From assembly GCA_949295115.1 (NCBI GenBank), contig CASFJU010000004.1:120153-184152 (forward strand): DNA of 64,000 nucleotides, read 5' to 3'. This stretch comes from an uncultured Phascolarctobacterium sp. GTDB taxonomy: Bacteria; Bacillota; Negativicutes; Acidaminococcales; Acidaminococcaceae. The notes beneath the pieces were generated by a model. It was not told the origin of the DNA, made no database searches, and saw only the letters and a program-made list of their open reading frames with translations. Made by a program: the position numbers and the translations under genes. Position 1 is the first letter of the stretch. Each line of letters opens with the position of its first letter. Shown piece by piece: positions 43,652 through 61,141 of this stretch.

Positions 43652-43726
43652 GCGGGTGTAGTTCAGTGGTAGAACAATAGCTTCCCAAGCTATGTGTCGC
43701 GAGTTCGAGTCTCGTCACCCGCTCCA
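43652..43726 (+). tRNA. tRNA-Gly(CCC), integration target of the island
   Basis: Cloverleaf; ATAGC-TT CCC AA-GCTAT; CCA; promoter TTGCCA...TGCTATAAT upstream. Confidence 0.95.
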
Positions 43727-43727
43727 G
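43682..43727 (+). repeat. attL core (46-bp direct repeat)
   Basis: TTCCCAAGCTATGTGTCGCGAGTTCGAGTCTCGTCACCCGCTCCAG, identical to 61096-61141. Confidence 0.95.
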
Positions 43728-43806
43728 TAAATAAGCGCACTTGCAAATCTTTGCAAGTGCTTTTTTATTGAAAAACCAAAGATAAGACTTATTTTAAGAC
43801 TAAATT

Positions 43807-43846
43807 AAAAAATCCGTTAGAGTATTATTACTCTGACGGATTTTTT
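43807..43846 (-). terminator. Terminator of the XRE gene
   Basis: AAAAAATCCGTTAGAGTA/TACTCTGACGGATTTTTT hairpin. Confidence 0.7.
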
Positions 43847-43847
43847 A

Positions 43848-44456
43848 TTACTCTGCAAATATCGGCGATTTATTTTCGAAAACTACATTGAGCGATTTAA
43901 TGCAATGCTCTAAAAATTCTTTATTTGCTCCACTAATCAAAAGATAATGAAATATTTGATAGGCCTTAATTTTGATTTCAGACTCATCTTTATCAGCAAA
44001 TTCATAAATTCGATCTCCGACATACCGTTCCCATTCATACTTAATGATATAGAGCAAAAAAATAATATCTGCTCGAGCAGCTAATGAATATGTTTGTTGA
44101 CGAATTTCATAATTTTTATAGTCATCTGGCAACTCAATCGGCACATCTACTGTTGTATCACAAACCGTCACTGTTAACGGAAATGAAGAAGGTTCCAAAA
44201 TTTTAATAACAGATTCGGAGTATTTTTCATCTGAACGGCCAAGCAACCAGTCTAAATTAACAGCAAAAATATCAGCAACAAATTGTAAATTATCAACTGT
44301 AGGAGTCCGCTTATTATTTTCCCATAAACTTAAAGTAGATTGGCTTAAATTTATCACATTAAATACTGAACAATATCTTGCTAACACAGAATGAGTTAAC
44401 TGATATTGCATTCGTATACTTTTTAATCGGTTCGCAAACAGTTCTGAATTAAACAC
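43848..44456 (-). CDS. XRE family HTH repressor of the element
   Basis: FANRLKSIR...LSQSTLSLWENNKRTP...VNLDWLLGRS; GAGGTG RBS before GTG at 44456. Confidence 0.85.
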   Translation of the reverse strand: MFNSELFANRLKSIRMQYQLTHSVLARYCSVFNVINLSQSTLSLWENNKRTPTVDNLQFVADIFAVNLDWLLGRSDEKYSESVIKILEPSSFPLTVTVCDTTVDVPIELPDDYKNYEIRQQTYSLAARADIIFLLYIIKYEWERYVGDRIYEFADKDESEIKIKAYQIFHYLLISGANKEFLEHCIKSLNVVFENKSPIFAE

Positions 44457-44478
44457 AAAACACACCTCGTACTAAAAT

Positions 44479-44575
44479 AATATTGCAAAATTCATTGACA
44501 TTATTGCAATAACGCTTTATAATTATTATAACAATATTGCAATTGTAATATTGTTATAATAATAAGGCAATATTA
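44479..44575. promoter_or_regulatory. Divergent control region with consensus rightward promoter and operator palindromes
   Basis: TTGACA (44495)-17-TATAAT (44518); TTATTGCAATAA palindrome in the spacer; 42-bp near-perfect palindrome at 44522-44563. Confidence 0.75.
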
Positions 44576-44614
44576 ATATATCTAAATTATATCATAGTTG
44601 GGACTGATTGAACA

Positions 44615-45250
44615 GTGAAGAACGCTTTTTGTATAGACAAACGTGTTATTTCCGGTGCCCGCTTTTTGCGTTTAAGCGCTACAGCACAATCACTTTACTT
44701 TCATTTAAACGCTGACGCAGATGATGACGGCATCGTCGAAGCCTTTGCAACTGTCAACAAAATACGGGCTAATGAGCAAGACTTAATACAACTCATTCAA
44801 GCCAATTTTATTGTATTACTCAATAAAAATGAATTGGTAGCATATATCACGGACTGGGTACGAAATAATAAAGGGCTTGATATACGTTGGCATAAGCAAA
44901 GCGAATATCTACAGCTTTTAGCTGATGTATGTCCTGATGCAAAGATTTATGTTGCAATATTACGCAATGGCAAGAAAATTAAATTGTTAACTACGGCCAA
45001 AGAAGCCATAATGACAAAGAATACTAATAAAGATAACAGTACAACACAAGAGAATCTCATGGATTCTCTTGATATTCTCAAGCTAAAAACAAGACAAGAG
45101 AATAACAATAATAAGTTATTCTCTTGTCTTGATAGTAGTATATATCAATGTCCTACTTGTGATGGTAAAGGAACTGTGGATAACTTGCTATGTGAAACCT
45201 GTCATGGCACAGGCTTAATTCAATATCATAAAAAGGAGAAATCAAAATGA
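44615..45250 (+). CDS. Phage-type replisome organiser / replication initiator with C-terminal DnaJ-type zinc finger
   Basis: N-terminus FLRLSATAQSLYFHLNADADDDGIV...ITDW resembles Firmicute phage replisome organisers; C-terminus has CPTCDGKG...CETCHGTG. Confidence 0.7.
   Translation: MKNAFCIDKRVISGARFLRLSATAQSLYFHLNADADDDGIVEAFATVNKIRANEQDLIQLIQANFIVLLNKNELVAYITDWVRNNKGLDIRWHKQSEYLQLLADVCPDAKIYVAILRNGKKIKLLTTAKEAIMTKNTNKDNSTTQENLMDSLDILKLKTRQENNNNKLFSCLDSSIYQCPTCDGKGTVDNLLCETCHGTGLIQYHKKEKSK
45047..45131. repeat. Two inverted-repeat pairs with CAAGAGAAT core (candidate origin iterons)
   Basis: CAAGAGAATC/GATTCTCTTG (10 bp perfect) and CAAGACAAGAGAATAAC/GTTATTCTCTTGTCTTG (17 bp perfect). Confidence 0.8.
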
Positions 45251-45453
45251 CTAAAAAATTTTATAGCGTCGCTGAAGTAGTCGATATAATTGGAAACATT
45301 AGCAAGGGCAATATTTATCGCCTGATTAAACGTGGTGATATACCTGCTATGTATATTGGGCAACGCCCTTTTGTGCCTTGCAGCTGGGTAGCGAGCAAAC
45401 TGGCAGAAGCAGATGCGTGGCAAACTAAACATACCACGCCTACCAAAGCCTAA
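45247..45453 (+). CDS. Excisionase-like HTH protein
   Basis: 68 aa; FYSVAEVVDIIGNISKGNIYRLIKRGDIPA..IG..; directly upstream of the integrase. Confidence 0.8.
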   Translation: MTKKFYSVAEVVDIIGNISKGNIYRLIKRGDIPAMYIGQRPFVPCSWVASKLAEADAWQTKHTTPTKA

Positions 45454-46685
45454 TGGCACGCCGGGCATGGGGCGAAGGCTCCGTCTTTTTTGACAAAGTT
45501 AATCAGCGTTGGACATGGAGGGGCACATACCTGATAAATGGTATAAAAACTCCAAAAACATTAACTGCAAAACGGCAAATAGATTTAAAAGAAAAAGTAG
45601 AAAAATTTAAATTTGATGTCAATCAAGGAGTTTTTGACAGCGCCAATATCACTGTTGCTGATTGGATAAAAAAATATTTAATTTTGTTTGTACAACCTAC
45701 GGTTCGTCCATCGACTTTTAACACTTATACTGAAAAATTAAACTTTGTTGTGCGAGCCTTTGGAGAACGAAAATTAAAAACTTTAACCCCTATGGAATTA
45801 CAAAATTTTTTTAATTCTCTTGCTATTGACGGTGGCGCAAAACGACAGGGTCTTTCTCCTACATCTGTCAATACAATTCGCCGTTACTTTAAAGCAGCCT
45901 GCCAAGCAGCTGTTAAAAATCATCTGCTTACAGATAACCCTGTCGATGGAACAAAAGCACTCCGCACAAAAAAGCCCGTAATTATTGTAGCTGATGAAGA
46001 TGAAGTCTTACGCTTGTTAGAAGTAGCTAAAGACGGTTCATATATTTACGAAGGAGTAAAAAACAAAAATTATATTACTGAAAATGAAGGCACTAAATAT
46101 TATAAACAATGTTTTTTCAATGTAGTTAATTTAGACTTGGCCACCGGATTGCGTAGCAGTGAATTATTTGGCTTACGTTGGCAAAACATTAATTGGGCCA
46201 AAGGCTATATCGACTTAAAAGAACAACTATTAATCATCAATGGTAAATATACTTTTTGTGAATTAAAGACTGATAAATCGAAACGCAAAATATACCTAAG
46301 TGAAAAGGTTATTGTTGAGCTACGCCGTTGGAAAATATATCAAAATTTTTACGCAGAAATGCTTGGCGATAAATTTGAAAATATACATAATTTGATTTTT
46401 ACCAACACATTTGGAGGATTTGTAAATGTACAAAACTTTAAACGCCGTTATTATTTTAAGATGCTTTCCGCCGCCGGTATCCAAAAAGGTTTTAACATTC
46501 ACTCCATGCGGCACACTCATGCAACTTTGCTTTTAAAGCATGGTGTAAAACCAAATGTTGTGGCTGATAGATTAGGGCACAGCAATGCTACAGTAACACT
46601 CAACATCTATGCACATGTACTCGAAAATATGGAAGATACTGCACCTAATACTTGGCAAGATATTTTAAAAGGGGAGAATTTATAA
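45453..46685 (+). CDS. Tyrosine integrase of the element
   Basis: N-terminal arm-binding region RRAWGEGSV; catalytic TGLR, HSMRH, LGH, IY all present. Confidence 0.93.
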   Translation: MARRAWGEGSVFFDKVNQRWTWRGTYLINGIKTPKTLTAKRQIDLKEKVEKFKFDVNQGVFDSANITVADWIKKYLILFVQPTVRPSTFNTYTEKLNFVVRAFGERKLKTLTPMELQNFFNSLAIDGGAKRQGLSPTSVNTIRRYFKAACQAAVKNHLLTDNPVDGTKALRTKKPVIIVADEDEVLRLLEVAKDGSYIYEGVKNKNYITENEGTKYYKQCFFNVVNLDLATGLRSSELFGLRWQNINWAKGYIDLKEQLLIINGKYTFCELKTDKSKRKIYLSEKVIVELRRWKIYQNFYAEMLGDKFENIHNLIFTNTFGGFVNVQNFKRRYYFKMLSAAGIQKGFNIHSMRHTHATLLLKHGVKPNVVADRLGHSNATVTLNIYAHVLENMEDTAPNTWQDILKGENL

Positions 46686-46687
46686 AA

Positions 46688-46760
46688 GCTGGGGTTTAAG
46701 GGGTTTACCCCTTGCCAGTGCTATCGTTGGTACCAGAAAGGTACCACGATGGGGAGCTGG
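46688..46760 (+). promoter_or_regulatory. Candidate oriT
   Basis: AAGGGG-TTTA-CCCCTTGCCAG hairpin plus ATCGTTGGTACC/GGTACCACGAT inverted repeat immediately upstream of mobC. Confidence 0.5.
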
Positions 46761-46792
46761 CCAATCAATATAATAATAAACGAGGTTGTAAA

Positions 46793-47107
46793 ATGGCACC
46801 AAAGTCAAAAACAGGTAAAAATTGCGATTTGCATTTGCGCGTCAATACTCAATTAAAAATATATATCGCTAATAAAGCTTCTGAAAATAATAAAACAATT
46901 AATGATTATTGTACAGATATTTTAAAAAATTATAAATATGCCAACCAGCTGATGAATATTGAGGCAATTCAGAAGAAGAAAGTTCGGCTTTTATCAAATT
47001 TAGCTAATAATTTAAATCAGCTTGCAAAACTATGTAATAGTGAAAAAGAGGCACCTCAAAAAGAAATGTTGTTAGCTATGTGGAATGATTTAAAAGCAAT
47101 AAGGTGA
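46793..47107 (+). CDS. mobC: MobC-type relaxosome accessory protein
   Basis: RHH-like N-terminus (LHLRVN), LSNLANNLNQLAKLCN motif; precedes the relaxase. Confidence 0.85.
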   Translation: MAPKSKTGKNCDLHLRVNTQLKIYIANKASENNKTINDYCTDILKNYKYANQLMNIEAIQKKKVRLLSNLANNLNQLAKLCNSEKEAPQKEMLLAMWNDLKAIR

Positions 47108-47111: not shown

Positions 47112-48074
47112 ATGCCAATACTAAAAGCGATAGATAATCCTGGAAAAAGCGTGGGAACTGTTATCAATTATGCAGATAAAGACCGAAAAAAAGAAATGAA
47201 TGACACATTATTTTTCGGTATAAATTGTGCTGATAATGCTGAAATTGCAGCCTATCAAATGCAAAAAACTAAAGAGTTTTATAATAAAACCGATGGCAGG
47301 CAATATAAGCATTATGTATTATCTTTCGCATCCAACGAAATAAGTATAGAAAGCGCAAAAATATATGCAAAAGAATTTGGCGAACAATGCTTTGGTGAAC
47401 GTTTTGAAGTAGCTGTTGGCATACATGTAAACAGTGAAGGTGGCAAGATACATGCACATTTTGTAGTAAATTCCGTGAGCTTTATTGACGGCAAAAAGCT
47501 ACATTTTGGTAAAGAAGATTTGGAAAATTTTAAATCTATAAACGATTGTTTAGCAAAGCAATATGGACTAAAAGTAATCGACCGCAACCCTGAAGCAGTA
47601 AAAGCACGAGGCCGCCCTCAAATGTATTCACAAAAAATGTATTGGCAATTTACTCAAAAAATAAAAGATAGCTGGGTTGCTCAATGTTCTGTTTCTGTTA
47701 ATGAATCATTAAAAACTAACCCAAAAAACTTTAATGAATTTGCCGAAAAAATGCAAGCAAACGGATGGGACACCCAAATACGTGGAAAGAATATAACTTT
47801 TAGCTGTATTCAAAATCCCAAGTTAAAAGTACGCGCTAACACTTTGGCAAGAAAGTTTAATAATGATACATTAAGCACAGCTAATATAATGCGAGTTTGC
47901 AATACCGAAAACCAGTATGATTTTATTAAAAAATCTGAACAACCAACTTTAACTAAAAATATGACAAATATAGTATCTGCGGTTAAAAATTTATCTCAAT
48001 ATGATAATTCAATACCAACCACAAAAGGATTTAAAGTAAATTTAGATAGTCGGGATGACGACTACGAAAGATAA
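47112..48074 (+). CDS. MOBP-family relaxase / mobilisation nuclease
   Basis: Motif I Tyr (VINY), YKHYVLSF, motif III GKIHAHFVVNSVS. Confidence 0.9.
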   Translation: MPILKAIDNPGKSVGTVINYADKDRKKEMNDTLFFGINCADNAEIAAYQMQKTKEFYNKTDGRQYKHYVLSFASNEISIESAKIYAKEFGEQCFGERFEVAVGIHVNSEGGKIHAHFVVNSVSFIDGKKLHFGKEDLENFKSINDCLAKQYGLKVIDRNPEAVKARGRPQMYSQKMYWQFTQKIKDSWVAQCSVSVNESLKTNPKNFNEFAEKMQANGWDTQIRGKNITFSCIQNPKLKVRANTLARKFNNDTLSTANIMRVCNTENQYDFIKKSEQPTLTKNMTNIVSAVKNLSQYDNSIPTTKGFKVNLDSRDDDYER

Positions 48075-48090
48075 AAAGGAGAAGATAAAA

Positions 48091-48273
48091 ATGATTAAAT
48101 CAAATAATAGTTTAAAATTAAAAGGCAATGTTATGAATAAACAAATTACATCTTATCAAAAGCAAATTGACAAGATAACGGAAAATGGTAAAAATGCAGT
48201 CATCTTGCGGTATATATATTGGGCTATTATTGTTTTTGGTATTTTGAGTATAGTATATCGCGTGACTAAATAA
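48091..48273 (+). CDS. Small hypothetical protein with C-terminal TM helix
   Basis: AAGGAG RBS before ATG at 48091; YIYWAIIVFGILSIVY. Confidence 0.5.
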   Translation: MIKSNNSLKLKGNVMNKQITSYQKQIDKITENGKNAVILRYIYWAIIVFGILSIVYRVTK

Positions 48274-48518
48274 TGAAAATTCAAGAGAAAAAGGAGCATG
48301 TAAAAATGTATAAGGCAAATATAGCACCAAAATTAAAAAAGCTTACTGCTAAAAAGGAAAAAATGGAAGTTTTAAAAAAAGAAATAGAGCAGCTTGAAAC
48401 TGAAATTACCAATGCTAAAAATAAAGAGATCCATCGTTTGTCCATACAATATTTTACTGCTAAAGATGCTGATACGCGTATGCAGATTGAATCTCAAATT
48501 AAAATATTAATGGAGTAA
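48273..48518 (+). CDS. Small coiled-coil hypothetical protein
   Basis: TAATG stop/start coupling; heptad-like Lys/Glu pattern. Confidence 0.55.
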   Translation: MKIQEKKEHVKMYKANIAPKLKKLTAKKEKMEVLKKEIEQLETEITNAKNKEIHRLSIQYFTAKDADTRMQIESQIKILME

Positions 48519-48524
48519 TACTAA

Positions 48525-48902
48525 ATGGATTTAGAAGAATTGGCAGCACAAGTGCAGCAATCAACGCCGGAAGAAAAAATTTCTAAAAAATTTGATGAAG
48601 TCATAGAAACTTTAACAGCAATCAAAGCCCAAAATGAATTAATTTTAAAACATGATAAAGCAATATATAGTAATGTTGTGAATGGTAATAAAAAATTTAA
48701 TACCCAATTTGAAAAAATATCTCAAATTTTGCTTGCTGCCGATAAAAACATTAATTCTATTATTGGGCATCTTTCGGATATTACAGCACAAGTACAATCT
48801 GTAATTATAAGCCGTAATTACGTTGATAATTTACACCTTGCACTTTTGGCGCTTTGCTGTTTTGAATGTTTAATTATAGTTTATATTTCATTTTTTAAAT
48901 AA
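48525..48902 (+). CDS. Hypothetical coiled-coil protein with C-terminal TM anchor
   Basis: 125-aa ORF ending LALLALCCFECLIIVYISFFK. Confidence 0.6.
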   Translation: MDLEELAAQVQQSTPEEKISKKFDEVIETLTAIKAQNELILKHDKAIYSNVVNGNKKFNTQFEKISQILLAADKNINSIIGHLSDITAQVQSVIISRNYVDNLHLALLALCCFECLIIVYISFFK

Positions 48903-48918: not shown

Positions 48919-48954
48919 AAATACGGACAATCACTATTTAGATTGTCCGTATTT
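48919..48954 (+). terminator. Terminator ending the mobilisation operon
   Basis: Perfect 14-bp arms AAATACGGACAATC/GATTGTCCGTATTT. Confidence 0.75.
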
Positions 48955-49028: not shown

Positions 49029-51776
49029 ATGAATAAACAGCAGCTTGCATCTAAAATTTGGGAATCAGCCAATAAAATGCGTTCTAAAATTGAGGCTAAC
49101 GAATATAAAGATTATATTCTTGGTTTTATTTTTTATAAATTTCTTTCAGATAAAGAAGTCAAATTTTTAAAAGAAAATGACTGGACAGACGAATATTTGC
49201 CGGAACTTGATGAAAACGATACAGATAACGTAGACTTCGTGCAGAAGAATATAGGTTATTTTATTCCTTATGAACATTTATTTTCGACCTGGATTGCAAA
49301 AGGCAACGATTTTACAGCAGATAATGTAAGCGTTGCTTTATCTTCCTTCAGCCGTTTGGTAAACGAATCGCACAAAGGTGTATTTAAAAACATTTTTCAA
49401 ACGCTGGAAACAGGTCTGTCCAAACTCGGAGCAACTGCTCCTGACCGCACCAAAGCTATTCGCGATTTAATCAACCTTATTAAAGATATACCCATGGACG
49501 GCAAGCAGGATTACGATGTACTTGGCTTTATTTACGAATATTTAATCAGCAACTTTGCTGCTAACGCAGGCAAAAAAGCTGGTGAATTTTACACTCCTCA
49601 TGAAGTATCACTTTTAATGTCGGAACTTGTTGCGCATCACCTTAAAGACCGCGATAAAATTGAAATTTACGACCCTACCAGCGGTTCCGGTTCGCTGCTT
49701 ATCAACATTGGCCAATGTGCTGCCAAATATATTGGCAGTGAGAACAACATAAAATATTATGCGCAGGAACTTAAAGAAAATACCTATAACCTTACGCGTA
49801 TGAACCTTGTTATGCGCGGAATTTTGCCGGATAACATCGTTACCCGTAATGGCGATACTTTAGAGGACGACTGGCCTTATTTTGATGATAAAGACCCGGT
49901 TAATACTTATAATCCGCTTTATGTAGATGCCGTTGTATCTAATCCGCCATATTCCCAGGCATGGGACCCTACTGATAAAGAAATGGACGCACGTTATTCG
50001 CGTTTTGGCCTTGCACCTAAAAGCAAAGCAGATTACGCCTTCCTTTTGCACGACTTGTTCCATTTAAAAGCAGACGGCATTATGGCTATTGTACTGCCGC
50101 ATGGCGTACTGTTTCGTGGTGGCGAAGAAGGCAAAATTCGTAAAAACTTAATAGAATATAACCATATCGACGCTATTATTGGCCTTCCGGCAAATATTTT
50201 CTTTGGCACCGGCATACCCACTATTATTATGGTGCTTAAACAAAAACGTGATAACACCGATGTGCTTATAGTCGATGCTTCCAAAGGATTTGCCAAAGTA
50301 GGCAAAAATAATATGCTTCGCGCCTGTGATATTAAAAAAATTGTAGACGCTGTAACAACCCGCTCTGACATTGATAAATTCTCTAAAAAGGTAAGTCGCG
50401 ATACCATCCGCGCTAATGATTATAACCTTAACATTCCCCGCTATGTTGATTCTTCCGAAAAAGCTGAAAGCTGGGACATTTATGCCTCTATGTTTGGTGG
50501 CATTCCCGAAAACGAATTAGCGGATTTACAAGCCTATTGGGACGCCTTCCCTACTCTTAAAACATCTCTGTTTAAACAATTAAACGCCGGTTATTGGCTG
50601 CTTAATACTGATGATTTAAAAACAGCAGTTAGCGACAACACAGATATAACCACTTTTAAAACTAATTACAACAACGCCTTTGGCGATTTTAACGCTTATC
50701 TTAATGCTGAACTTATAGATGATACCGTAAATGTTAATATCTCTAAAGAACTAAACACTATCAGCGATAATATTTTTGCACGCCTTCAAAACGTGCCGTT
50801 AATCGATAAATACGAAGCTTACCAGCTGCTTGCCGATAATTGGAATAACATTGCCGTTGATTTAGAAATACTGCAAACCGAAGGTATGGACGCTGTTAAA
50901 GTGGTAGACCCTAATTTTGTTGTAAAAAAGAAAAACGGCAAAGATGAAGAAGTGCAGGAAGGTTGGAAAGGTCATGTGCTACCGTTTGAATTGGTACAAA
51001 AAGTTATCTTAAACGAAGATGTTCAAGAATTGGATTCAAAGAACTCTATGTTAAATAACATTAAAGCAAAACTTGATGATATTATTGAAAACTTATCTGA
51101 GGAAGATAGAGAGTCTAATTTATTAAATGATGCAAATACTGCTTTCAATGAAAGTGAAGTAAAAAATAAAATTAAAATTATTTTAAACGATATAAAAACA
51201 ACAGAAATTGAAGTATTGCAAGAATATTTATCTCTGAGCAAAAAGAAGGAAAAAATAGAATTTATAAAACAAAAAAACGATTATTTTCCAGATAAAATAT
51301 TGATTGCAAATGATGGAACCTATAAAAAGAATGATATAAAAAATTATATTAATGAGTTGAAATTAACATATCAGTTTCCAGAGGGGTCTTGGGAAAACAC
51401 ATTAAAAGAGATATTAGACCTTTTAAATAATGAAAAAATATTAAAAGATGAAATAAAGAAAAAAACTATCGCTTTACACCTTAAAACTAAAGAAGTTATA
51501 GAACAACTTACTGATGAGCAAGTAAACACCTTACTTAAAGAAAAATGGATTACACCGTTTTTCAACAGCTTAAACGGTCTGCCTGATGCTGTTGTAAATA
51601 CTTTAGTTAATAAACTGGAAACTATTTGCAAAAAATACGAAACCACTTTTGCTGATGTAGAAAAAGAGATTGCCGAAACCGAACAAAGTTTAATAGGTAT
51701 GCTTGATGAGTTGGAAGGCAATGAGTTTGATATGCAGGGTATTGCTGAACTGAAAGCATTGTTAGGGGGTAAGTAA
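49029..51776 (+). CDS. hsdM: Type I restriction-modification methyltransferase (long 915-aa form)
   Basis: LASKIWESANKMR, GEFYTP, DPTSGSG (motif I), NPPY (motif IV), VLPHGVLFRGG. Confidence 0.96.
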   Translation: MNKQQLASKIWESANKMRSKIEANEYKDYILGFIFYKFLSDKEVKFLKENDWTDEYLPELDENDTDNVDFVQKNIGYFIPYEHLFSTWIAKGNDFTADNVSVALSSFSRLVNESHKGVFKNIFQTLETGLSKLGATAPDRTKAIRDLINLIKDIPMDGKQDYDVLGFIYEYLISNFAANAGKKAGEFYTPHEVSLLMSELVAHHLKDRDKIEIYDPTSGSGSLLINIGQCAAKYIGSENNIKYYAQELKENTYNLTRMNLVMRGILPDNIVTRNGDTLEDDWPYFDDKDPVNTYNPLYVDAVVSNPPYSQAWDPTDKEMDARYSRFGLAPKSKADYAFLLHDLFHLKADGIMAIVLPHGVLFRGGEEGKIRKNLIEYNHIDAIIGLPANIFFGTGIPTIIMVLKQKRDNTDVLIVDASKGFAKVGKNNMLRACDIKKIVDAVTTRSDIDKFSKKVSRDTIRANDYNLNIPRYVDSSEKAESWDIYASMFGGIPENELADLQAYWDAFPTLKTSLFKQLNAGYWLLNTDDLKTAVSDNTDITTFKTNYNNAFGDFNAYLNAELIDDTVNVNISKELNTISDNIFARLQNVPLIDKYEAYQLLADNWNNIAVDLEILQTEGMDAVKVVDPNFVVKKKNGKDEEVQEGWKGHVLPFELVQKVILNEDVQELDSKNSMLNNIKAKLDDIIENLSEEDRESNLLNDANTAFNESEVKNKIKIILNDIKTTEIEVLQEYLSLSKKKEKIEFIKQKNDYFPDKILIANDGTYKKNDIKNYINELKLTYQFPEGSWENTLKEILDLLNNEKILKDEIKKKTIALHLKTKEVIEQLTDEQVNTLLKEKWITPFFNSLNGLPDAVVNTLVNKLETICKKYETTFADVEKEIAETEQSLIGMLDELEGNEFDMQGIAELKALLGGK

Positions 51777-51777
51777 A

Positions 51778-52867: not shown

Positions 52868-52884
52868 GCAGAAAGGAAAAAGTC

Positions 52885-55800
52885 ATGGCTTTTACATCGG
52901 AAGCAGAATTTGAAAAAGCATTAGTTGATTTATTGCCGTCTAAAGGTTGGGAAAAGACTGTTTTAAAAAATCCTACCGAAGAACAGCTTATTCAAAACTG
53001 GGCTGATATTTTATTTGAAAACAACCGCAGCATTGACCGTTTAAACGATTATCCGCTTACTAAAGGAGAAATGGCTCAAATTTTAGAGCAAATTAAAAAC
53101 TTAAGAACGCCACTGATGCTGAATGGTTTTATTAACGGCGGCAGTGTACAAATTACGCGCGATAATTCGCAGGACACTTTGCATTTTGGCAAAGAAGTTT
53201 CGCTTAAAATTTATGATCGCCGCGAAATTGCCGCAGGCCAAAGCCGTTACCAAATAGTTGAGCAGCCGCAGTTTAATACTAAATCACCCATACTTAACAA
53301 TAGGCGTGGTGATGTAATGCTGCTTATTAACGGTATGCCGGTAATTCATATCGAACTTAAAAAGAGTGGCATCCCTGTAAGTCAGGCATATCACCAAATC
53401 GAAAAATATGCGCACGAAGGCGTATTTACCGGGCTGTTTTCATTAGTGCAAATTTTTGTAGCCATGAACCCTGAAGAAACCGTATATTTCGCTAACCCGG
53501 GACCTGATGGAACTTTTAACTCTGATTTTTACTTTCATTGGGCAGATTTTAACAATGAACCTATTAACGATTGGCAGCGCGTTGCCTCTACTCTGCTCTC
53601 TATACCAATGGCACATCAATTAATTGGCTTTTATACTGTTGCAGACGATTTAGACGGTATTTTGAAAGTTATGCGAAGCTATCAGTATTTTGCCGCCAGT
53701 GCTATTTCTGATAAAGTTGCTAAAACTAAATGGGAAGGCAATGAACAATTAGGCGGTTACATTTGGCATACTACCGGCAGCGGCAAAACTATGACTTCTT
53801 TTAAATCTGCACAACTTATTGCTGCCTCTAACGATGCTGATAAAGTAGTATTTTTAATGGACCGTATCGAACTTGGCACACAAAGTTTAAGGCAGTACCG
53901 TGGTTTTGCTGATAATGCCGATAATGTACAGGCAACGGAAAACACTGGTGTGTTGGTAAGTAAATTAAAAAGTAACGATGTAAAAAATACTCTGATAGTT
54001 ACCTCAATACAAAAAATGAGTAACATTAAAGACGAAGCCGACGGTGGCATGACTTCTGTTGATGTCAAACTAATGCAATCTAAACGCATCGTTTTTATCG
54101 TTGATGAATGTCATCGTTCTACTTTCGGTGATATGCTGTATATAATTAAGCAAACTTTCCCTAAAGCCGTATTTTTCGGCTTTACCGGCACGCCTATTCA
54201 CCTTGAAAACCAAAAGAAAAAATCTACGACAGCTATGGTTTTTGGTAATGAACTGCACCGTTACAGTATTGCAGACGGCATTCGTGATAAAAACGTACTT
54301 GGTTTTGACCCTTATAAGGTTTTAACCTATAAAGACCAGGATGTGCGCGAGCAAATTGGATTAGAAGCAGTTAAAGCACAAACACTTGAAGAAGTGTACG
54401 CCGATGAGAAAAAAACTAAAAAATTTAATGAATATATGAAAATGCCTATGGCTGGGTATTATGAAAATAATGAGTATATAAAAGGCATTGAGGATTATTT
54501 GCCTGATAGTCAGTACCGCACAGAAGAACACCAGAACAATGTTGTAAAAGATATCATAGATAACTGGGTATATCTTAGCCATAATAGTAAATTCCACGCT
54601 ATTTTTGCCACATCAAGCATTAACGAAGCCATAGAATATTATAGACTGATGAAAAAAGCTGCACCGCAGCTTAAAATAACAGCACTTTTTGACTCCAGCA
54701 TTGATAATAATGGCAAAGCAGAATTTAAAGAAGATGGTCTTGTAGAAGTTATCGAAGATTATAATGCACATTATAATCAGCATTTTACTATCCCTACATT
54801 TGCCGCTATGAAGAAGGATATTGCCGCAAGGCTGGCGCATAAAAAACCTTATCAACGGCTGAAGCCTGAAGAACAGGTTGATTTGTTGATAGTAGTTGAC
54901 CAAATGCTTACCGGGTTCGATTCAAAATGGGTTAACACGCTTTATATGGATAAAGTGCTTAAATATGAGAATATCATTCAAGCGTTCTCGCGTACCAATC
55001 GCATTTTTGGACCGGAAAAACCGTTTGGCACAATTAAATATTACCGCAGGCCGCATACTATGGAAAAATTAGTAGCGGCAGCCTTTAAGCTTTACTCCGG
55101 CGATAAACCGTTTGGCTTATTTGTAAACAAGTTAAATAAAAACTTAGAAGATTTAAATTTTTATTATAAAAGCATTAAAGACCTCTTTGGACAAGCAGGC
55201 ATAGCGGACTTTGCTAAACTGCCGGAGCAGCAAGCCGAATGTAAGGAGTTTGCACGTTTATTTAAACTATTAAACGAAGCTTTGGAAGCAGCTAAATTGC
55301 AAGGTTTTAACTGGAATAAATTAGAATATCAATTCGTAGACGAGAATAGCGGAGAAAAGTACAGCATTAAAGTAGCTTTAGATGAAAAGACTTATAAAAT
55401 ACTGGCCAAAAGGTATAAAGAATTATCCAAACCTGGCGGAAGCGGGCCTGGTGAAGAAATGCCTTATGATATTGATGGTTATTTAACAACTATTGATACC
55501 GATGATATTGATTCAGATTACATGAATTCCCGCTTTGTAAAGTATATTAAATTACTGCATACTGATGGTACATCGGCAGAGATTTTAGCTAAAGCCGCTG
55601 ATGAGTTGCATAAAACTTTTGCTACTTTAACTCAGGAAGAACAAAAGTACGCAAATATTTTATTACACGATATTCAGCGTGGCGATGTAATACCGGAAGC
55701 TGGTAAAACCTTTAGAGATTACATAACAGAGTATTTAGCCAATGCCAAAAACACGCAGGTACATAAAGTGGCGCAAATTTTAGGTTTAGACGAAGCCAAA

Positions 55801-56013
55801 TTGCTGAAAATGATGGCGTTAGGTGTGACAGATGCCAATATTAATGCTTTTGGACGTTTTGATGAATTAAAGACAACGGTCGATAAGCAAAAAGCGAAGG
55901 CTTATTTTGAAAAAGTTGAAGGCAAAAAAATTATACTGCCTAAAGTAAATAACAAAATTGACCTGTTTTTAAGAAATTTTATTATAAGTGGAGGATTTGA
56001 TATCGAGCAATAA
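52885..56013 (+). CDS. hsdR: Type I restriction endonuclease subunit R
   Basis: D...IELKK nuclease motif, HTTGSGKT, DECH, FTGTP, QAFSRTNR. Confidence 0.96.
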   Translation: MAFTSEAEFEKALVDLLPSKGWEKTVLKNPTEEQLIQNWADILFENNRSIDRLNDYPLTKGEMAQILEQIKNLRTPLMLNGFINGGSVQITRDNSQDTLHFGKEVSLKIYDRREIAAGQSRYQIVEQPQFNTKSPILNNRRGDVMLLINGMPVIHIELKKSGIPVSQAYHQIEKYAHEGVFTGLFSLVQIFVAMNPEETVYFANPGPDGTFNSDFYFHWADFNNEPINDWQRVASTLLSIPMAHQLIGFYTVADDLDGILKVMRSYQYFAASAISDKVAKTKWEGNEQLGGYIWHTTGSGKTMTSFKSAQLIAASNDADKVVFLMDRIELGTQSLRQYRGFADNADNVQATENTGVLVSKLKSNDVKNTLIVTSIQKMSNIKDEADGGMTSVDVKLMQSKRIVFIVDECHRSTFGDMLYIIKQTFPKAVFFGFTGTPIHLENQKKKSTTAMVFGNELHRYSIADGIRDKNVLGFDPYKVLTYKDQDVREQIGLEAVKAQTLEEVYADEKKTKKFNEYMKMPMAGYYENNEYIKGIEDYLPDSQYRTEEHQNNVVKDIIDNWVYLSHNSKFHAIFATSSINEAIEYYRLMKKAAPQLKITALFDSSIDNNGKAEFKEDGLVEVIEDYNAHYNQHFTIPTFAAMKKDIAARLAHKKPYQRLKPEEQVDLLIVVDQMLTGFDSKWVNTLYMDKVLKYENIIQAFSRTNRIFGPEKPFGTIKYYRRPHTMEKLVAAAFKLYSGDKPFGLFVNKLNKNLEDLNFYYKSIKDLFGQAGIADFAKLPEQQAECKEFARLFKLLNEALEAAKLQGFNWNKLEYQFVDENSGEKYSIKVALDEKTYKILAKRYKELSKPGGSGPGEEMPYDIDGYLTTIDTDDIDSDYMNSRFVKYIKLLHTDGTSAEILAKAADELHKTFATLTQEEQKYANILLHDIQRGDVIPEAGKTFRDYITEYLANAKNTQVHKVAQILGLDEAKLLKMMALGVTDANINAFGRFDELKTTVDKQKAKAYFEKVEGKKIILPKVNNKIDLFLRNFIISGGFDIEQ

Positions 56014-56043
56014 AAAACTTTCGCTTATATACGGCGCAAAGAT

Positions 56044-56074
56044 AAAAGAGTCAAGGATTTTCCTTGGCTCTTTT
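56044..56074 (+). terminator. Terminator after hsdR, insulating the silent cassettes
   Basis: AAAAGAGTCAAGG/CCTTGGCTCTTTT hairpin. Confidence 0.65.
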
Positions 56075-56081
56075 GCTATGT

Positions 56082-57049
56082 TTGGGAACAGCGTAAGTTG
56101 GGAGAGATAGCAGAAACTTATTCCGGTGGCACGCCTTCAGTAAGTATAAAAAAATATTATATTGGAAATATTCCTTTTATTCGTTCAGCAGAAATAAATA
56201 GTAAAAGCACAGAATTATTTATCAATGAGGAAGCTTTACTATATTCATCTGCTAAACGTGTTTCAACTGGCGATATTTTATATGCGCTATACGGGGCTAC
56301 TAGCGGAGAAGTAGGGAGAGCAGCTTTAAATGGAGCAATAAATCAAGCTGTATTAGCTATTTTACCACAGAAAAAATATGATTCTGAATATTTAATGCAA
56401 TGGCTACGTAAAAGTAAATTTAAAATAATAGGAACATTCTTACAAGGTGGTCAAGGTAATTTATCAGCAGAAATAGTCAAAAATTTAAATATTGATTTGC
56501 CAAACAAAGTAGAACAAGAGAAAATAGGAAATTATTTCTTAAATCTTGATAACCTTATCACCCTTCATCAGCGTAAATATTTTTGCAGTAATAACCTAAT
56601 ATTTACTATAACAACCGCTTGGGAACAGCGTAAGTTGGGAAAATTTGGATATACTTATACTGGTCTTTCTGGAAAAATCAAAGAAGATTTCGGCCATGGG
56701 CAAGCTCGCTTTATTACTTACAACATCGTCAGAGACGCCTGAAGAAGTTGGGATGTCCTCGGTTTTACTTGAAAAATATAATATAACTTATTTAAATAGC
56801 TTTTGTTTTGGATTTAGGCCAACTGAAAAATTTAATAATCACTTTATCGCATATATGCTCCGTTCCAAAACAGTGAGAGAAAAAATTATTCTTCTTGCAC
56901 AGGGGATATCAAGATATAACATATCAAAAAATAAAGTGATGGAAATAGATATTTCTTTGCCGACGCTTAAAGAGCAAAAATTTGTTGGTCAATATTTTAA
57001 GTCTCTCGACAACCTTATCACCCTTCATCAGCGTGAGTGTTTTTATTAA
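56082..57049 (+). other. hsdS: Two silent hsdS TRD cassettes (TRD-c, TRD-d); TRD-d carries an internal frameshifting deletion at ~56718
   Basis: Each cassette is bounded by WEQRK and NLITLHQR repeats; no RBS or N-terminal leader; conserved central spacer is replaced by a short linker. Confidence 0.85.
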
Positions 57050-57064
57050 AAAAGGAGGTGCAAA

Positions 57065-57994
57065 ATGTTAAGTTTAATTAAAAATGTAGACCTTTTTCAT
57101 CAGTATTATCATTCATGGATAAAGGTTTACAAAGAAGGGGCTGTACGAAAAGTAACTATGGATAAATATTATATGACATATTCATGGTTAATAAGATTAG
57201 CGCCCAAATTGCGTTTATGTGATGTTACCAGAATTACTTATCAGCAGTTGCTTAATGATTATGCCATATATCACGAAAGGCAAACTACCATGGATTTTCA
57301 CCATCAACTGAAAGGTGCAATAATGGACGCTGTTGATGAAGGACTTATTGAGCGTGACCCTACACGAAAAGCGATAATTAAAGGCAAAACACCGGCAATA
57401 AAAAAGAAAAAGTATCTTAACCAATTTGAACTGCATACTTTGCTCATCAATTTAGATTTGCAAAACAGAATTAACTGGGATTGGCTGATTATGTTAATAG
57501 CCAAAACAGGCATCAGGTTTTCGGAAGCATTAGCTATTACGCCTAAAGATTTTGACTTTTCTCACCAAATGCTTTCTATTAGCAAAACTTGGGATTATAA
57601 GGGGAGCGGCGGTTTTTTGCCAACAAAAAATGCGTCTTCAGTGCGGAAAATTCAAATTGATTGGCAAACAGTAATTCAGTTTGCAGAACTGGTAAAAAAT
57701 TTGCCTAACGATAAACCTATATTTTTGTTAAAAGAAAAAATATATAATTCTACTATAAATGATATTTTAGAAAGGCGTTGCCGCAAAGCTAATTTGCCTG
57801 TTATTTCTGTACACGGGCTTAGGCATACGCACGCATCATTGCTACTTTTTGCTGGTGTTTCCATTGCCAGTGTTGCCAGACGGCTCGGCCACGCCAGCAT
57901 GACAACAACACAAAAAACTTATCTGCATATTATACAAGAGTTGGAAAATAAAGATGTTGATTTAGTTATGCGCTCCATAGCCGGACTAAGTTAA
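57065..57994 (+). CDS. Second tyrosine recombinase, hsdS-shufflon-associated type
   Basis: 309 aa with no arm-binding domain; TGIRFSE, HGLRHTH, RLGH, TY; adjacent to the TRD cassettes. Confidence 0.88.
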   Translation: MLSLIKNVDLFHQYYHSWIKVYKEGAVRKVTMDKYYMTYSWLIRLAPKLRLCDVTRITYQQLLNDYAIYHERQTTMDFHHQLKGAIMDAVDEGLIERDPTRKAIIKGKTPAIKKKKYLNQFELHTLLINLDLQNRINWDWLIMLIAKTGIRFSEALAITPKDFDFSHQMLSISKTWDYKGSGGFLPTKNASSVRKIQIDWQTVIQFAELVKNLPNDKPIFLLKEKIYNSTINDILERRCRKANLPVISVHGLRHTHASLLLFAGVSIASVARRLGHASMTTTQKTYLHIIQELENKDVDLVMRSIAGLS

Positions 57995-58111
57995 AAGCAA
58001 ATGCTCTCGCTGATGATAATTATAATTTTAAGCTTTTATATATTGAACTTTGACCGGATTATGCTGTATTTATGGTATAATATTTAAAAATGATTTAATG
58101 AGGAACACAAA

Positions 58112-58987
58112 ATGGATAATTTAAAATATAAATACGAACTTCTAATAAACTGGTGGCGTTCACTTAATATTACTGATGATGCTGCACTTGCAGAAGCTTT
58201 TAACGAGCATATCATTAATTTTGCATATAATTCCGGCAACATTGAAAATCCTAATGTTACCTACCACGATACCCGTGAAATTTTTGAACATGACAGTGTT
58301 ACCGGCTACACAGGCAATTTATGCACGCTGTTTGAAATTCGTAATGCTAAAGTTGCTATGGAATACTTCTTTAAAGCCTTTAGGGATAAAATGCCTTTGA
58401 ATGAAACCTTCATCAAAGAATTGCAGCGGCGTTTGACACTTAACACTTACGATGAACGCCGCTGGCAGTGCTGTGAGTGCCCGGGAGAATACAAGAAATG
58501 CGATTATGTTACCGGCAGAAATGAAACCGGCGCATCTGCCGAAGATGTTCCGGATGAAATGCAGGAGCTGTTAGAGGATTTAGAGGTACTGCCGAAAGAA
58601 CCTGAAAAAGTTTTGATGGCAGCTGCTTTCTTCCACGCAAAGTTTGAAAATATCCATCCTTTTGCCGACGGAAATGGGCGTACCGGCCGCCTTGCCATGA
58701 ATTACCTGCTTGCCATAAATAATCATCCGCCACTTGTAATTCATCAAGAGGATAGAAAAGCGTACTTTGAAGCCCTTGAAGCGTGGGACACGGAGCAGAA
58801 CCTTAAACCGTTAAAAGCCTTTTTGTTGAAACAGATTATAAAAACGTGGGCAAAAAGGATTACTGTTTTAGAAAAAGCGGAAAATGAGGAAGATTTAAAA
58901 GATTTTAAGCAGGCAATGGATGAATTTAAGAAAAATCCTAAAACCTATACCCACGAAGAAATGAAGAAAATGTTTGATTTAAAATAA
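58112..58987 (+). CDS. Fic family protein (class II) with an extra antitoxin-like C-terminal tail
   Basis: Canonical HPFADGNGRTGR; N-terminal inhibitory SGNIEN matching (S/T)xxxE(G/N). Confidence 0.9.
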   Translation: MDNLKYKYELLINWWRSLNITDDAALAEAFNEHIINFAYNSGNIENPNVTYHDTREIFEHDSVTGYTGNLCTLFEIRNAKVAMEYFFKAFRDKMPLNETFIKELQRRLTLNTYDERRWQCCECPGEYKKCDYVTGRNETGASAEDVPDEMQELLEDLEVLPKEPEKVLMAAAFFHAKFENIHPFADGNGRTGRLAMNYLLAINNHPPLVIHQEDRKAYFEALEAWDTEQNLKPLKAFLLKQIIKTWAKRITVLEKAENEEDLKDFKQAMDEFKKNPKTYTHEEMKKMFDLK

Positions 58988-59009
58988 AAATGCAAAAGGA
59001 GTTGATAAC

Positions 59010-59276
59010 ATGGGGTTAGAAAAAGCTATTGCCCATGGTAAAGAGCACCGTAAACCTTATCATGATTCAAGGGCTATCGCAGGAGAATGCAGAAATCACG
59101 GCGGCTGCCCATACTGCACCGGCAATAGATTGTATAGTTTTGAAAAACAAAAACAATCAGCTATTCAAAAGCTAAAAGAATATTACTCAAATGACGGGCA
59201 AAATTTCAGCAATGATAAAATGCCCGTTATTTTTTATTCCAGAAACGATAAAATCATCTTAAAAAGTGCTGTTTAA
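59010..59276 (+). CDS. Small basic hypothetical protein with CxxHxxCxxC motif
   Basis: AAGGAG RBS; GKEHRKPY...CRNHGGCPYC. Confidence 0.65.
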   Translation: MGLEKAIAHGKEHRKPYHDSRAIAGECRNHGGCPYCTGNRLYSFEKQKQSAIQKLKEYYSNDGQNFSNDKMPVIFYSRNDKIILKSAV

Positions 59277-59448
59277 GGCTTTAAAAAAATGAGTGGCATA
59301 TAAATGTTCGCGATTTAACATAAAATGTTTTTAAAGGCATTTATGACGATTTTAGAGGCAAGTTAAGTGAACTCTATTATCCTATGAAAATATTAGCTTT
59401 TCAAAAATTAAACATATATGACTTATTGAACAGATTGAACATATAAGA

Positions 59449-59483
59449 AAAACCGCGAAGCAACTTAAACTTCGCGGTTTTAG
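59449..59483. terminator. Terminator of the ATPase gene
   Basis: AAAACCGCGAAG/CTTCGCGGTTTT hairpin. Confidence 0.7.
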
Positions 59484-59498
59484 TATAAATAAAAAATG

Positions 59499-60821
59499 TT
59501 AATTATTTTCTAACAGCCAATCAATTATGTTTAATGATTTAATGCCATTATAATCAGCGTCGTTGTTTAAATCCATAGATAGCACAATCTTTTCGTAATT
59601 ATCACGTATTTTCTGCAACGGTGCTAATTCACGCTTGCGTACTTCTTCTCCTTGCAAGCTTTCCGTTACCTGAATATACAATTTTTCGTTATATTTTGTT
59701 GCTATAAAATCAACTTCGGTATTATCAACCTTGCCAACGGCTAAATCGTAACCACGCCGCAAAAGTTCAAGGTAAATAACATTTTCTAAAATGTGTCCTC
59801 TATCACGGTCGCGGTTGCCAAGCAAATAGGTTCTAAGCCCAGTATCGACAATATAATATTTGCCAAGGGTTCTTAAAAATTCTTTGCCTTTTATATCAAA
59901 TCGTTTAATTTCATAAAAAAAGTAACTTTCAGTTAAAGTGTTTACATAAGACTGGACAGTATGCGTACTGGGCTTGCCTTTACGTGTTTCTATATCTATT
60001 AATCCTTCATTGCTAAGCGTACCTGCCATTGATGTAGCAGAAATACTGCTGCCAATATTATCTGCAAGGAAAAGGATTATTTTACGTAATAACGCAGCAT
60101 CAGTAATACGTTTTTGACCCCTGCGCTTTTCCCTTTCCAGTATATCTCTTATTACTACTGTTGAATAAATTCCGTCCAATAGTGCCATAGCCTTGTCCAT
60201 TTCAAGACCTATATCGGCAATGCCAGGCATACCGCCAAAAAGCAAGTAAGCATTAAAGGCTTCTGCCGGTTCATAACTAATACCGTTTTTGTCTTTAATA
60301 ATTTTACGCTTGCCTCCAAAGGCACTGGTAGCTTCTTCTATCTTAAACTCGTGGAAATCAAGAAATTCTGCAAAAGAGAGCGGCAACATTTTAATTTCAA
60401 CGCTGCGTCCGGAAAGATATGTGGCATATTCTGACGATAGCAAATAGGCATTAGAACCGGTTATATAAATATCGCAGTCAAAATCAACACGGAAAGAATT
60501 AACAGCATCTTCCCAACCTTCTATGCGTTGAAGTTCATCAAAAAAGAGATACGAGCGTTTTTCTGTATTGATATGCTCTTTAACATAACTGTAAAACTCC
60601 TGCGCTGTCATATTCCTAAAAGCCATAGATTCAAAATTCATTGACAGTATTTGGTTATCTGCAACGCCTTGTTCCTGTAAATATTTAATCATCAGCTTTA
60701 GCAAACTGGATTTACCACAGCGGCGGATGCCGGTAATTATTTTTACAGGCTCTGTATCTTTAAAAGCGATCAATTTATTTAAATAACCGTTTCTTGATTT
60801 TAAAATTTGGTTGCTAATCAT
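59499..60821 (-). CDS. AAA_14 + DUF4143 ATP-binding protein
   Basis: ITGIRRCGKS Walker A, FFDELQ, ITGSN, LSGR, LENVIYLEL, EVDF, YIQV. Confidence 0.88.
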   Translation of the reverse strand: MISNQILKSRNGYLNKLIAFKDTEPVKIITGIRRCGKSSLLKLMIKYLQEQGVADNQILSMNFESMAFRNMTAQEFYSYVKEHINTEKRSYLFFDELQRIEGWEDAVNSFRVDFDCDIYITGSNAYLLSSEYATYLSGRSVEIKMLPLSFAEFLDFHEFKIEEATSAFGGKRKIIKDKNGISYEPAEAFNAYLLFGGMPGIADIGLEMDKAMALLDGIYSTVVIRDILEREKRRGQKRITDAALLRKIILFLADNIGSSISATSMAGTLSNEGLIDIETRKGKPSTHTVQSYVNTLTESYFFYEIKRFDIKGKEFLRTLGKYYIVDTGLRTYLLGNRDRDRGHILENVIYLELLRRGYDLAVGKVDNTEVDFIATKYNEKLYIQVTESLQGEEVRKRELAPLQKIRDNYEKIVLSMDLNNDADYNGIKSLNIIDWLLENN

Positions 60822-61095
60822 TTTTAACACCTGCCTTATGTAAATTATAGCACAAACTCTAAAAAAAACAAAGTTTATGCTATGAAATGCACAAACTTTT
60901 GAAATATTAACGAATTTGAATTGTTGAAAACATATGAAATTATAAACAAATAGTAAGACAAAATAGTGACTAATTCTAATTTAACTGCTTTGAAACATAA
61001 TAAAAAGTTTACACAAATTATGGTTTAAACTGATATTTTTATAATAAAAAAGTAAAATATTACACATGAATTATATAATTCTTTCATATTGAAAA

Positions 61096-61141
61096 TTCCC
61101 AAGCTATGTGTCGCGAGTTCGAGTCTCGTCACCCGCTCCAG
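61096..61141 (+). repeat. attR core (duplicated 3' half of tRNA-Gly)
   Basis: Identical to 43682-43727; followed by a hairpin and T-tract (61147-61180), probably the original tRNA terminator. Confidence 0.95.

Follow-up and report, generated by a model that had tools for sequence, protein, structure and literature searches.

A probable integrative mobilizable element with a phage-type Rep protein at tRNA-Gly(CCC) of an uncultured Phascolarctobacterium

The DNA analysed here (the window) is a stretch of 64,000 nucleotides from an uncultured Phascolarctobacterium sp. (GenBank assembly GCA_949295115.1, contig CASFJU010000004.1, positions 120,153 to 184,152 of the forward strand). Integrated into this chromosome at tRNA-Gly(CCC) is an element that spans 17,414 bp between its attachment (att) repeats and is very likely an integrative mobilizable element (IME, or iMOB ‘hitcher’). 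It possesses a tyrosine integrase, att repeats and a corresponding empty site in a related genome, together with its own relaxase, MobC and a candidate origin of transfer (oriT). The combination is known in kind; the backbone of this element is not matched to any described family. It is distinguished by a tyrosine integrase inside a predicted repressor-controlled rep-xis-int operon at tRNA genes, by a replisome organizer that is shortened, ends in a zinc ribbon and has a palindromic origin candidate inside its gene, by interchangeable MOBP and MOBQ mobilization cassettes, and by its Negativicute host.

The ends of the element are defined by the following features.

43652-43726, plus strand: tRNA-Gly(CCC), the integration target (ARAGORN; Rfam tRNA, 70.2 bits)
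43682-43727, no strand assigned: attL, one copy of a 46-nt direct repeat (repeat search and sequence)
61096-61141, no strand assigned: attR, the other copy of the 46-nt direct repeat (repeat search), which is the displaced original 3' part of the tRNA and is followed by the chromosomal terminator
43737-43760, plus strand: element-borne terminator hairpin (terminator scan), replacing the chromosomal terminator of the tRNA

The 46-nt repeat is exact in both copies and extends from the anticodon loop to one base past the 3' end of the tRNA, with the 3' 45 nt of tRNA-Gly(CCC) falling within attL. Between the repeats the DNA has a GC content of 34.3%, as against 50.7% elsewhere in the window. An empty site reconstructed by joining positions 43300-43727 to 61142-61500 was aligned with L012, an uncultured Phascolarctobacterium locus retrieved via the host gene downstream of the element, and the two matched at 95% identity in one ungapped segment. 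Because this alignment is ungapped, the element ends are exact and the repeat is not a chance one. An att repeat in tRNA-Gly and a Negativicutes host had both been put forward in an earlier reading of the DNA from its letters alone (the sequence-only reading); the repeat proved exact, and the matches to Phascolarctobacterium through the downstream host gene agree with the host, which is a member of the Acidaminococcaceae within the Negativicutes. Public sequencing runs containing the element come from human and chicken gut metagenomes. The tRNA is the sole Rfam match in the element, and the sequence of the terminator at 43737-43760 is also present 3' of attL in two other loci (L006 and L008). 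In L013, the 3' half of the attL tRNA differs from the attR copy beyond TTCCCAAGC, and the crossover is therefore confined to this segment of the anticodon loop.

The left part of the element holds a regulatory switch, a replication and integration module and a mobilization module, arranged as follows.

43848-44465, minus strand: CI/XRE-type repressor, 205 amino acids (aa) (Pfam HTH_3, 1.4e-8; PHROG transcriptional regulators/repressors)
44495-44523, plus strand: sigma-70 promoter TTGACA-17-TATAAT (12/12 consensus match)
44522-44563, plus strand: 42-bp palindrome, presumed operator (inverted repeat, 95% complementary), which follows and overlaps the promoter
44615-45250, plus strand: rep, 211 aa (PHROG 8489/5708; profile search; AlphaFold 2 model; BFVD; tblastn)
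45247-45453, plus strand: xis, 68 aa, excisionase-type HTH_17 (Pfam HTH_17; PHROG 66 excisionase)
45453-46685, plus strand: tyrosine integrase (int), 410 aa (Pfam Phage_integrase, 2.3e-24, and Phage_int_SAM_3; PHROG 1, 1.4e-63)
46686-46793, plus strand: candidate oriT, the 108-nt GC-rich spacer between int and mobC (hairpins at 46698-46713 and 46714-46762; DNA fold z score -3.5)
46794-47107, plus strand: mobC, relaxosome accessory protein (Pfam NikA-like ribbon-helix-helix and MobC, ~3e-5)
47112-48074, plus strand: relaxase, 320 aa, MOBP superfamily (Pfam PF03432, 7.8e-25, 88 bits against a cut-off of 24.6 bits)
48055-48902, plus strand: three small open reading frames (ORFs) of 72, 81 and 125 aa, two with C-terminal hydrophobic helices, conserved in close relatives
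48919-48954, plus strand: terminator hairpin (terminator scan, 14 pairs), closing the transcription unit from rep to the 125-aa ORF

The divergent region between the repressor and rep is 149 bp long and contains both the promoter and the palindrome, and a related palindrome occupies the same position in locus L001. The repressor has an N-terminal HTH_3 domain with weak PDB matches to TP901-1 CI and ICEBs1 ImmR, while its C-terminal domain (~120 aa) gave no domain match and no S24 peptidase. The reading frames of rep and xis overlap at the start of xis and the stop of rep, those of xis and int at the start of int and the stop of xis, and the first strong terminator downstream of the promoter is that at 48919-48954. 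Because the frames overlap and strong terminators are absent, the integrase appears to belong to the induced operon, which on this layout would extend from rep to the three small ORFs. The sequence-only reading had described an XRE repressor divergent from rep-xis-int, followed by oriT, mobC and a MOBP relaxase, with the integrase internal at ~1.7 kb from attL. All of these genes were recovered at the positions it gave, and the integrase starts 1,726 nt from attL.

The relaxase match spans the entire PF03432 profile (1-132 of 132), and an N-terminal Tyr20 and a histidine-rich motif, HVNSEGGKIHAH, with H105, H114 and H116 can be read from its sequence. NCBIfam TraI_MobP scored 38 bits against a cut-off of 250, placing the relaxase in a distant MOBP subgroup. 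Relaxase homologues on plasmids share 25–33% identity, are typed MOBP by MOB-suite and have mobC upstream; 633 of the 732 homologues sit on plasmids predicted to be mobilizable. No PDB relative of the relaxase was found. The integrase matches phages at below 30% identity only, which is not informative. The two-hairpin layout of the candidate oriT is kept in four MOBP-type relatives, in which 4 of the 25 predicted pairs are changed on both sides (compensatory), and GGAGCTGGCC is conserved 3' of the second stem in MOBP-type family members. In relatives with a MobA_MobL (MOBQ) relaxase, the spacer between int and the relaxase gene is unrelated to that of the window and contains TAAGTGTACCCT (L001, 12090-12445), which resembles the RSF1010-type nick region. 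From these spacers, oriT and relaxase appear to have been swapped together as one cassette. All 18 element ORFs of at least 65 aa were compared with Pfam, and ten each with PHROGs, NCBIfam and PADLOC. Among the ORFs scanned there was no component of a type IV secretion system (T4SS), coupling protein, capsid, terminase, helicase or helicase loader, in agreement with the absences listed in the sequence-only reading.

The same backbone recurs elsewhere. A family of 21 loci was retrieved through Rep homologues, and in every one a minus-strand XRE repressor is divergent from plus-strand rep-xis-int, which is followed directly by a relaxase of either the PF03432/MOBP or the MobA_MobL/MOBQ type. The rep-xis-int-mob synteny that the sequence-only reading had suggested searching for is family-wide. 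Wherever the left end is present, it lies just 3' of tRNA-Gly(CCC), tRNA-Arg(CCT) or tRNA-Arg(TCT); attR of the tRNA-Arg relatives was not found within the flanks examined. Copies of the window type are 96% identical over the backbone, whereas their host flanks are 84% identical or, in L008, unrelated. Because near-identical copies sit in divergent or unrelated flanks, the element has probably moved horizontally in recent time.

Rep comprises an N-terminal winged helix (residues ~1–140), a disordered linker and a C-terminal CxxCxGxG zinc ribbon. Pfam matched the zinc ribbon only (residues 175–200) and found no initiator domain in the protein. Residues 9–150, on the other hand, match two PHROG ‘DnaD-like helicase loader’ families (6e-19 for PHROG 8489, and 1.5e-13). 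The close family of Rep consists of 16 clusters, from gut metagenomes only, and no relative was found when Rep was aligned to one genome per species. A profile of the Rep family retrieved 5,882 proteins at E<=1e-3 with an N-terminal domain of ~120 aa in common; these are mostly 250–340 aa long and a few have a C-terminal DnaB_2, HNH or DUF6017 domain. An AlphaFold model built from 145 sequences reached a confidence (pLDDT) of 81 overall and above 90 at residues 10–130, and it predicts a disordered linker at 142–173 and a small ribbon at the C-terminus. Thirteen folds in BFVD match Rep at E<=1e-3; where these carry a name, it is ‘DnaD-like replication protein’ or ‘Replisome organizer’. By tblastn against GenBank phages, near-full-length matches were present only in the Streptococcus satellite prophages Javan462 and Javan368, whose ‘putative DNA replication protein’ is 30–33% identical to Rep over 97% of the query; partial matches include lactococcal phage r1t ORF11, Lj928 and the phiCp-B ‘replisome organizer’. 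In the satellite homologues the C-terminal domain is DnaB_2, and the next gene encodes a DnaI loader. Sequence and profile searches of the PDB returned the zinc ribbon only, or nothing, and the nearest PDB folds, winged helix-turn-helix (wHTH) regulators (E ~0.1) and an anti-TRAP-like zinc ribbon, were non-significant. Membership of a plasmid initiator family was considered for Rep and ruled out, as plasmids gave only three partial matches.

Judged by these homologies, Rep is that part of a phage or satellite replisome organizer which binds the origin, and its zinc ribbon would take the place of the helicase-recruiting part. The sequence-only reading had proposed a phage-type initiator acting with host DnaB, to be judged by whether Rep had initiator homology. 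Homology to replication proteins was found in the PHROG match, the BFVD folds and the satellite prophage matches, and for the N-terminal domain the proposal stands. Rep has no DnaB_2 domain, however, and neither a loader nor a primase accompanies it. With the DnaB_2 domain and the loader both absent, replication through host DnaB can be proposed only tentatively, and autonomous replication of the excised element is no more than plausible. The gene for the host replicative helicase, dnaB, is located in the same window (7928-9283).

A candidate origin lies within rep itself.

45041-45138, no strand assigned: candidate origin, with four CAAGAGAAT copies in two inverted pairs followed by an AT-rich stretch

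There are five matches to CAAGAGAAT in the 64-kb window against 0.41 expected, and four of the five fall within 45047-45126. The larger pair is an inverted repeat of 17 bp without mismatch (45090-45131; DNA fold z score -7.8), and the cluster falls where rep encodes the linker, which is disordered and poorly conserved. At the same rep codons, a perfect palindrome of 14–18 bp is present in relatives with 42–74% Rep identity. It exists in six sequence versions (window, L001, L105, L096, L097 and L106/L108) whose arms have changed together, and it is absent from L098, which has a longer Rep, and from L107, which has a rep deletion. For lambda O and several lactococcal phages the origin is likewise located within the organizer gene. 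In phage SPP1, gp38 binds oriL within its own gene 38 (PMC6316719). The CAAGAGAAT palindrome cluster is accordingly read here as the candidate origin of replication of the element, a single-strand origin or an RNA structure being possible alternatives for the rep palindromes. The natural deletion in L107 (8001-8384) leaves a Rep of 129 aa without linker and palindrome in a backbone that is otherwise intact. Given that the backbone stays intact despite the deletion, the integrated element does not need rep in order to persist.

The life cycle proposed for the element, comprising repression, excision, replication, nicking and transfer, is drawn from homology, layout and conservation. While the element is at rest, its CI/XRE repressor would bind the 42-bp palindrome abutting the -10 box and silence a single operon containing rep, xis, int, oriT, mobC, the relaxase gene and the three small ORFs. 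Because the repressor lacks an autocleavage domain, derepression would probably occur through a partner protein of a helper element. Xis and Int would then excise the element through a crossover within that part of the repeat which comes from the anticodon loop, and Rep would bind the iteron-like palindromes within its own gene, leading to transient theta-type replication. Helicase loading would be supplied by the host or the helper, given that the element has neither a DnaD-type domain nor a loader. The nick would be made by MobC and the MOBP relaxase in the conserved hairpins that separate int from mobC, the single strand would exit via the T4SS of a co-resident conjugative element, and in the recipient Int would reinsert the element at the tRNA gene. 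The defence cargo of ~12 kb would benefit both host and element.

Several observations weigh against this proposal. In a metagenome containing the element, depth was 22 over the element and 24–25 over its flanks, and the exact attP junction pattern had no match in JGI metagenome contigs; the metagenome runs consisted of assembled contigs, which break at the 46-nt repeat. No helper element was identified. Where int begins, a weak hairpin resembling a terminator (45467-45484) speaks against a single operon, and hsdS, a cargo gene, is out of frame in the window copy. Concerning Rep, no fold in the PDB matched significantly, neither a DnaD/DnaB_2 domain in the protein nor an adjacent DnaI loader was found, the three plasmid matches are partial and to plasmids of ~40 kb, and the rep deletion of L107 has to be counted on the same side.

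It is possible, if doubtful, that the element is an IME whose Rep is a DNA-binding regulator or architectural factor and not an initiator, the excised form then not replicating itself. Rep could, for example, activate the xis-int-mob operon or autoregulate it, with the palindrome serving as a single-strand origin or attenuator. In keeping with such a role, Rep shares only its winged-helix N-domain with the organizers and ends in a zinc ribbon, no DnaD/DnaB_2 domain, loader or helicase accompanies it, its PDB neighbours are wHTH transcription factors, albeit at non-significant scores, the copy number of the element is not raised in metagenomes, and L107 tolerates a deletion in rep. However, the named relatives of Rep in sequence and fold are phage or satellite replication proteins, the inverted iteron-like pairs and AT-rich stretch in the linker codons mirror the origins of organizer genes, and rep stands first in the induced operon as it does in replicative IMEs and satellites. 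Another version of the IME is unlikely: a hitcher with a minimal replicon, in which Rep, made up of the organizer N-domain and the zinc ribbon and with its origin inside rep, would provide origin recognition only and loading would be borrowed from a helper, while MOBP and MOBQ cassettes of oriT and relaxase are swapped on a fixed backbone. Either a conjugative element or a prophage co-resident at the same tRNA could act as this helper, and the hitcher could be induced, amplified and perhaps moved by both phage and T4SS helpers.

The sequence-only reading also gave the switch and replicon a satellite style, and the element could on that basis be a phage satellite resembling the phage-inducible chromosomal islands (PICIs), or a dual hitcher packaged by a helper phage as well as mobilized by conjugation. 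The layout with a repressor divergent from rep-xis, the lack of an autocleavage domain in that repressor, as in those of Stl type, the best full-length Rep matches from Streptococcus satellite prophages, a size of 17.4 kb that fits small capsids, and the tRNA-Arg relative L004 in tandem with a prophage via a shared partial tRNA copy are all consistent with this. Yet PHROGs and Pfam revealed no terS, capsid-remodelling, portal, head-tail or packaging-interference homologue in the element (cos or pac sites may nonetheless be present), and alignment of Rep to the 2.9 million contigs of IMG/VR returned no family member. A relaxase is present in 21/21 family loci and TrbL/VirB6 in some, whereas the elements that carry the satellite Rep homologues have no relaxase. 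A satellite lifestyle is thus quite unlikely. Least probable is a decaying immobile island, a remnant of an integrative conjugative element (ICE) or of a prophage that has become fixed at the tRNA gene. The frameshifts in hsdS and one silent cassette, the 1.7-kb remnants at the same site in other genomes and the lack of an excision signal in metagenome contigs and the JGI attP pattern would fit such decay. Against it, the backbone genes are all intact with overlapping frames, the att repeats are identical across 46 nt, the site is empty in a near relative, copies 96% identical exist in different host backgrounds, and backbone and cis-elements are conserved family-wide with compensatory changes. 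An IME remains the favoured reading.

The sequence-only reading did not recognise the combination as that of a named IME family, and here earlier work goes further than it allowed, as IMEs with replisome organizers and IMEs that excise, replicate and are mobilized have already been described. A 2017 review of IMEs tabulates phage-type replisome organizers with or without DnaC (Tn6104 and streptococcal IMEs), all in elements with serine integrases (PMC5704250), and a streptococcal survey reports IMEs with PF03432/MobP and PF03389/MobQ relaxases and with tRNA-targeting tyrosine integrases (PMC5357655). In SGI1 and the PIMEs, excision is followed by replication from a repA-oriV of their own and by mobilization through helper plasmids, and about half of a PIME is defence cargo (PMC7433901; bioRxiv 10.64898/2026.01.12.698999).

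Like Tn6104 of Clostridioides difficile, IME_SpnAP200_rumA and IMESp2907, the element is integrated and non-conjugative and has its own relaxase and a prophage-derived organizer gene; replication of the excised form is presumed for that group, as it is here. Compared by description only, the members of that group have serine integrases inserting into rumA or ICE genes, and some have DnaC, whereas the integrase here is of the tyrosine type and targets a tRNA gene, Rep is shortened (N-domain plus zinc ribbon) and there is no loader. With SGI1 and PIMEs it shares int/xis, regulators, rep with an origin (a candidate one here), mobilization genes and, as proposed, a life cycle in which helper-dependent excision leads to transient replication and conjugative transfer. 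In contrast to this element, those have Rep_3/RepA iteron initiators, activation by AlpA/LuxR or dependent on AcaCD, Gram-negative Pseudomonadota hosts, and IncP-type tra genes or no relaxase; the similarity is one of analogy, not homology. PICIs and the Staphylococcus aureus pathogenicity islands (SaPIs), with Javan462 and Javan368, likewise have a repressor divergent from a xis-rep operon, flanking att sites and a homologous Rep N-domain. In these satellites, however, int is at the repressor-side end, Rep has DnaB_2, a DnaI loader is present and there is no relaxase; in this element int is within the induced operon, a relaxase and candidate oriT are present, and packaging genes are absent. 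The mobC gene followed by a PF03432 relaxase gene, typed MOBP and predicted mobilizable, is shared with small Firmicute plasmids such as C. botulinum pRSJ2_1 and S. aureus pRIVM6519-1 at a low relaxase identity of 25–33%, but those plasmids have RepL or other replicons and no integration module. NBU1-type elements of Bacteroides are also IMEs at a tRNA 3' end with a tyrosine integrase and a primase-like replication gene beside oriT-mob, and they depend on a helper conjugative transposon, much as this element would depend on a helper. They differ in having int at the end, a single Mob protein, other regulation, unrelated proteins and a host of another phylum.

Abundant commensals of the gut, Phascolarctobacterium and its relatives have mobile elements that are hardly described, and no paper joining Phascolarctobacterium with ‘mobilizable’, ‘integrase’ and ‘relaxase’ was found by full-text search. 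The current picture of IMEs is unchanged by this element. The family illustrates how small islands that depend on a helper can carry defence systems between gut Negativicutes. With a single promoter and a single operon, it offers a compact test case for whether a bare origin-binding domain suffices to replicate an excised island, and for the exchange of relaxase/oriT modules on a constant backbone.

The description of the element in the sequence-only reading was accurate for the left ~5 kb backbone and left out the cargo, which occupies about two thirds of the element (49029-60830, ~12 kb) and is made up as follows.

49029-56013, plus strand: type I restriction-modification system (Pfam; PADLOC MTase_I, Specificity_I and REase_I; frame analysis)
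49029-51776, plus strand: hsdM (Pfam, PADLOC)
~51780-52867, plus strand: hsdS, frame broken at 51848/51849
52843-56013, plus strand: hsdR (Pfam, PADLOC)
56082-56576 and 56619-57036, plus strand: two silent hsdS target-recognition cassettes in direct orientation (repeat families, Pfam Methylase_S)
57065-57994, plus strand: tyrosine recombinase, 309 aa (Pfam Phage_integrase), located after the silent cassettes
58112-58987, plus strand: Fic-domain protein with an HPFADGNGR motif and a DUF6290 tail (Pfam Fic, 2.3e-21)
59010-59276: cysteine-rich ORF of 88 aa, 3' of the Fic gene, no match
59499-60830, minus strand: AAA_14/DUF4143 ATPase (Pfam; PADLOC defence candidate PDC-S01, 8.9e-154)

The break in hsdS falls at the end of a conserved WEQRK(L) repeat, and a metagenome run containing the element has an alternative, in-frame hsdS continuation at 51848/51849 as well. 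It is possible that the break is an assembly chimera at the repeat. The second silent cassette is frameshifted near 56717. Direct repeats would yield deletion or cassette exchange, not the usual switching by inversion. The Fic protein matches the PADLOC defence candidates PDC-S04 (5.6e-40) and SoFic (2.6e-29), and with its antitoxin-like DUF6290 tail it may, to judge from gene order, form a toxin/defence pair with the 88-aa ORF.

The PDC-S01 gene at the right end is also found in the tRNA-Arg relatives. It is the sole gene of 1.7-kb att-flanked remnants located at the same tRNA-Gly site in two loci (L013, 7941-9782; L082, 7837-9670). These remnants correspond to window positions 59441-61141, with a different terminator on the attL side, and by structure resemble a cis-mobilizable deletion derivative. 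The right-end ATPase gene and attR of the window were considered as an older remnant lying beside the IME, and this was ruled out, since a third att copy near 59440 is lacking.

Downstream of the relaxase gene, a TrbL/VirB6-like gene is present in three family loci (L096, 6782-7717; L097, 7024-7686; L106, ~8670), and this lone component may adapt a helper channel. In L004 (1-9100), a tRNA-Arg member of the family comes directly after phage tail genes (Phage_min_tail, Phage-tail_3 and NLPC_P60), the junction being a partial tRNA-Arg copy of 45–49 nt. A prophage and an IME appear, from this arrangement, to have integrated in tandem at one att site.

Outside the element, ten large ORFs were sampled; each is an ordinary chromosomal gene (with ppk, ppx, gdpP, dnaB, serS and purB among them), and none of the ten is a T4SS gene. 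Housekeeping content there includes ppk, two ppx genes, gdpP, serS and purB, together with a cluster of four tRNAs at 22245-22570. In L006 (8282-8846), a gene pair encoding a PhdYeFM-type antitoxin and a 101-aa partner, which the window lacks, lies upstream of tRNA-Gly, between ThrE-like genes and the tRNA, and the pair is present in related Phascolarctobacterium genomes.

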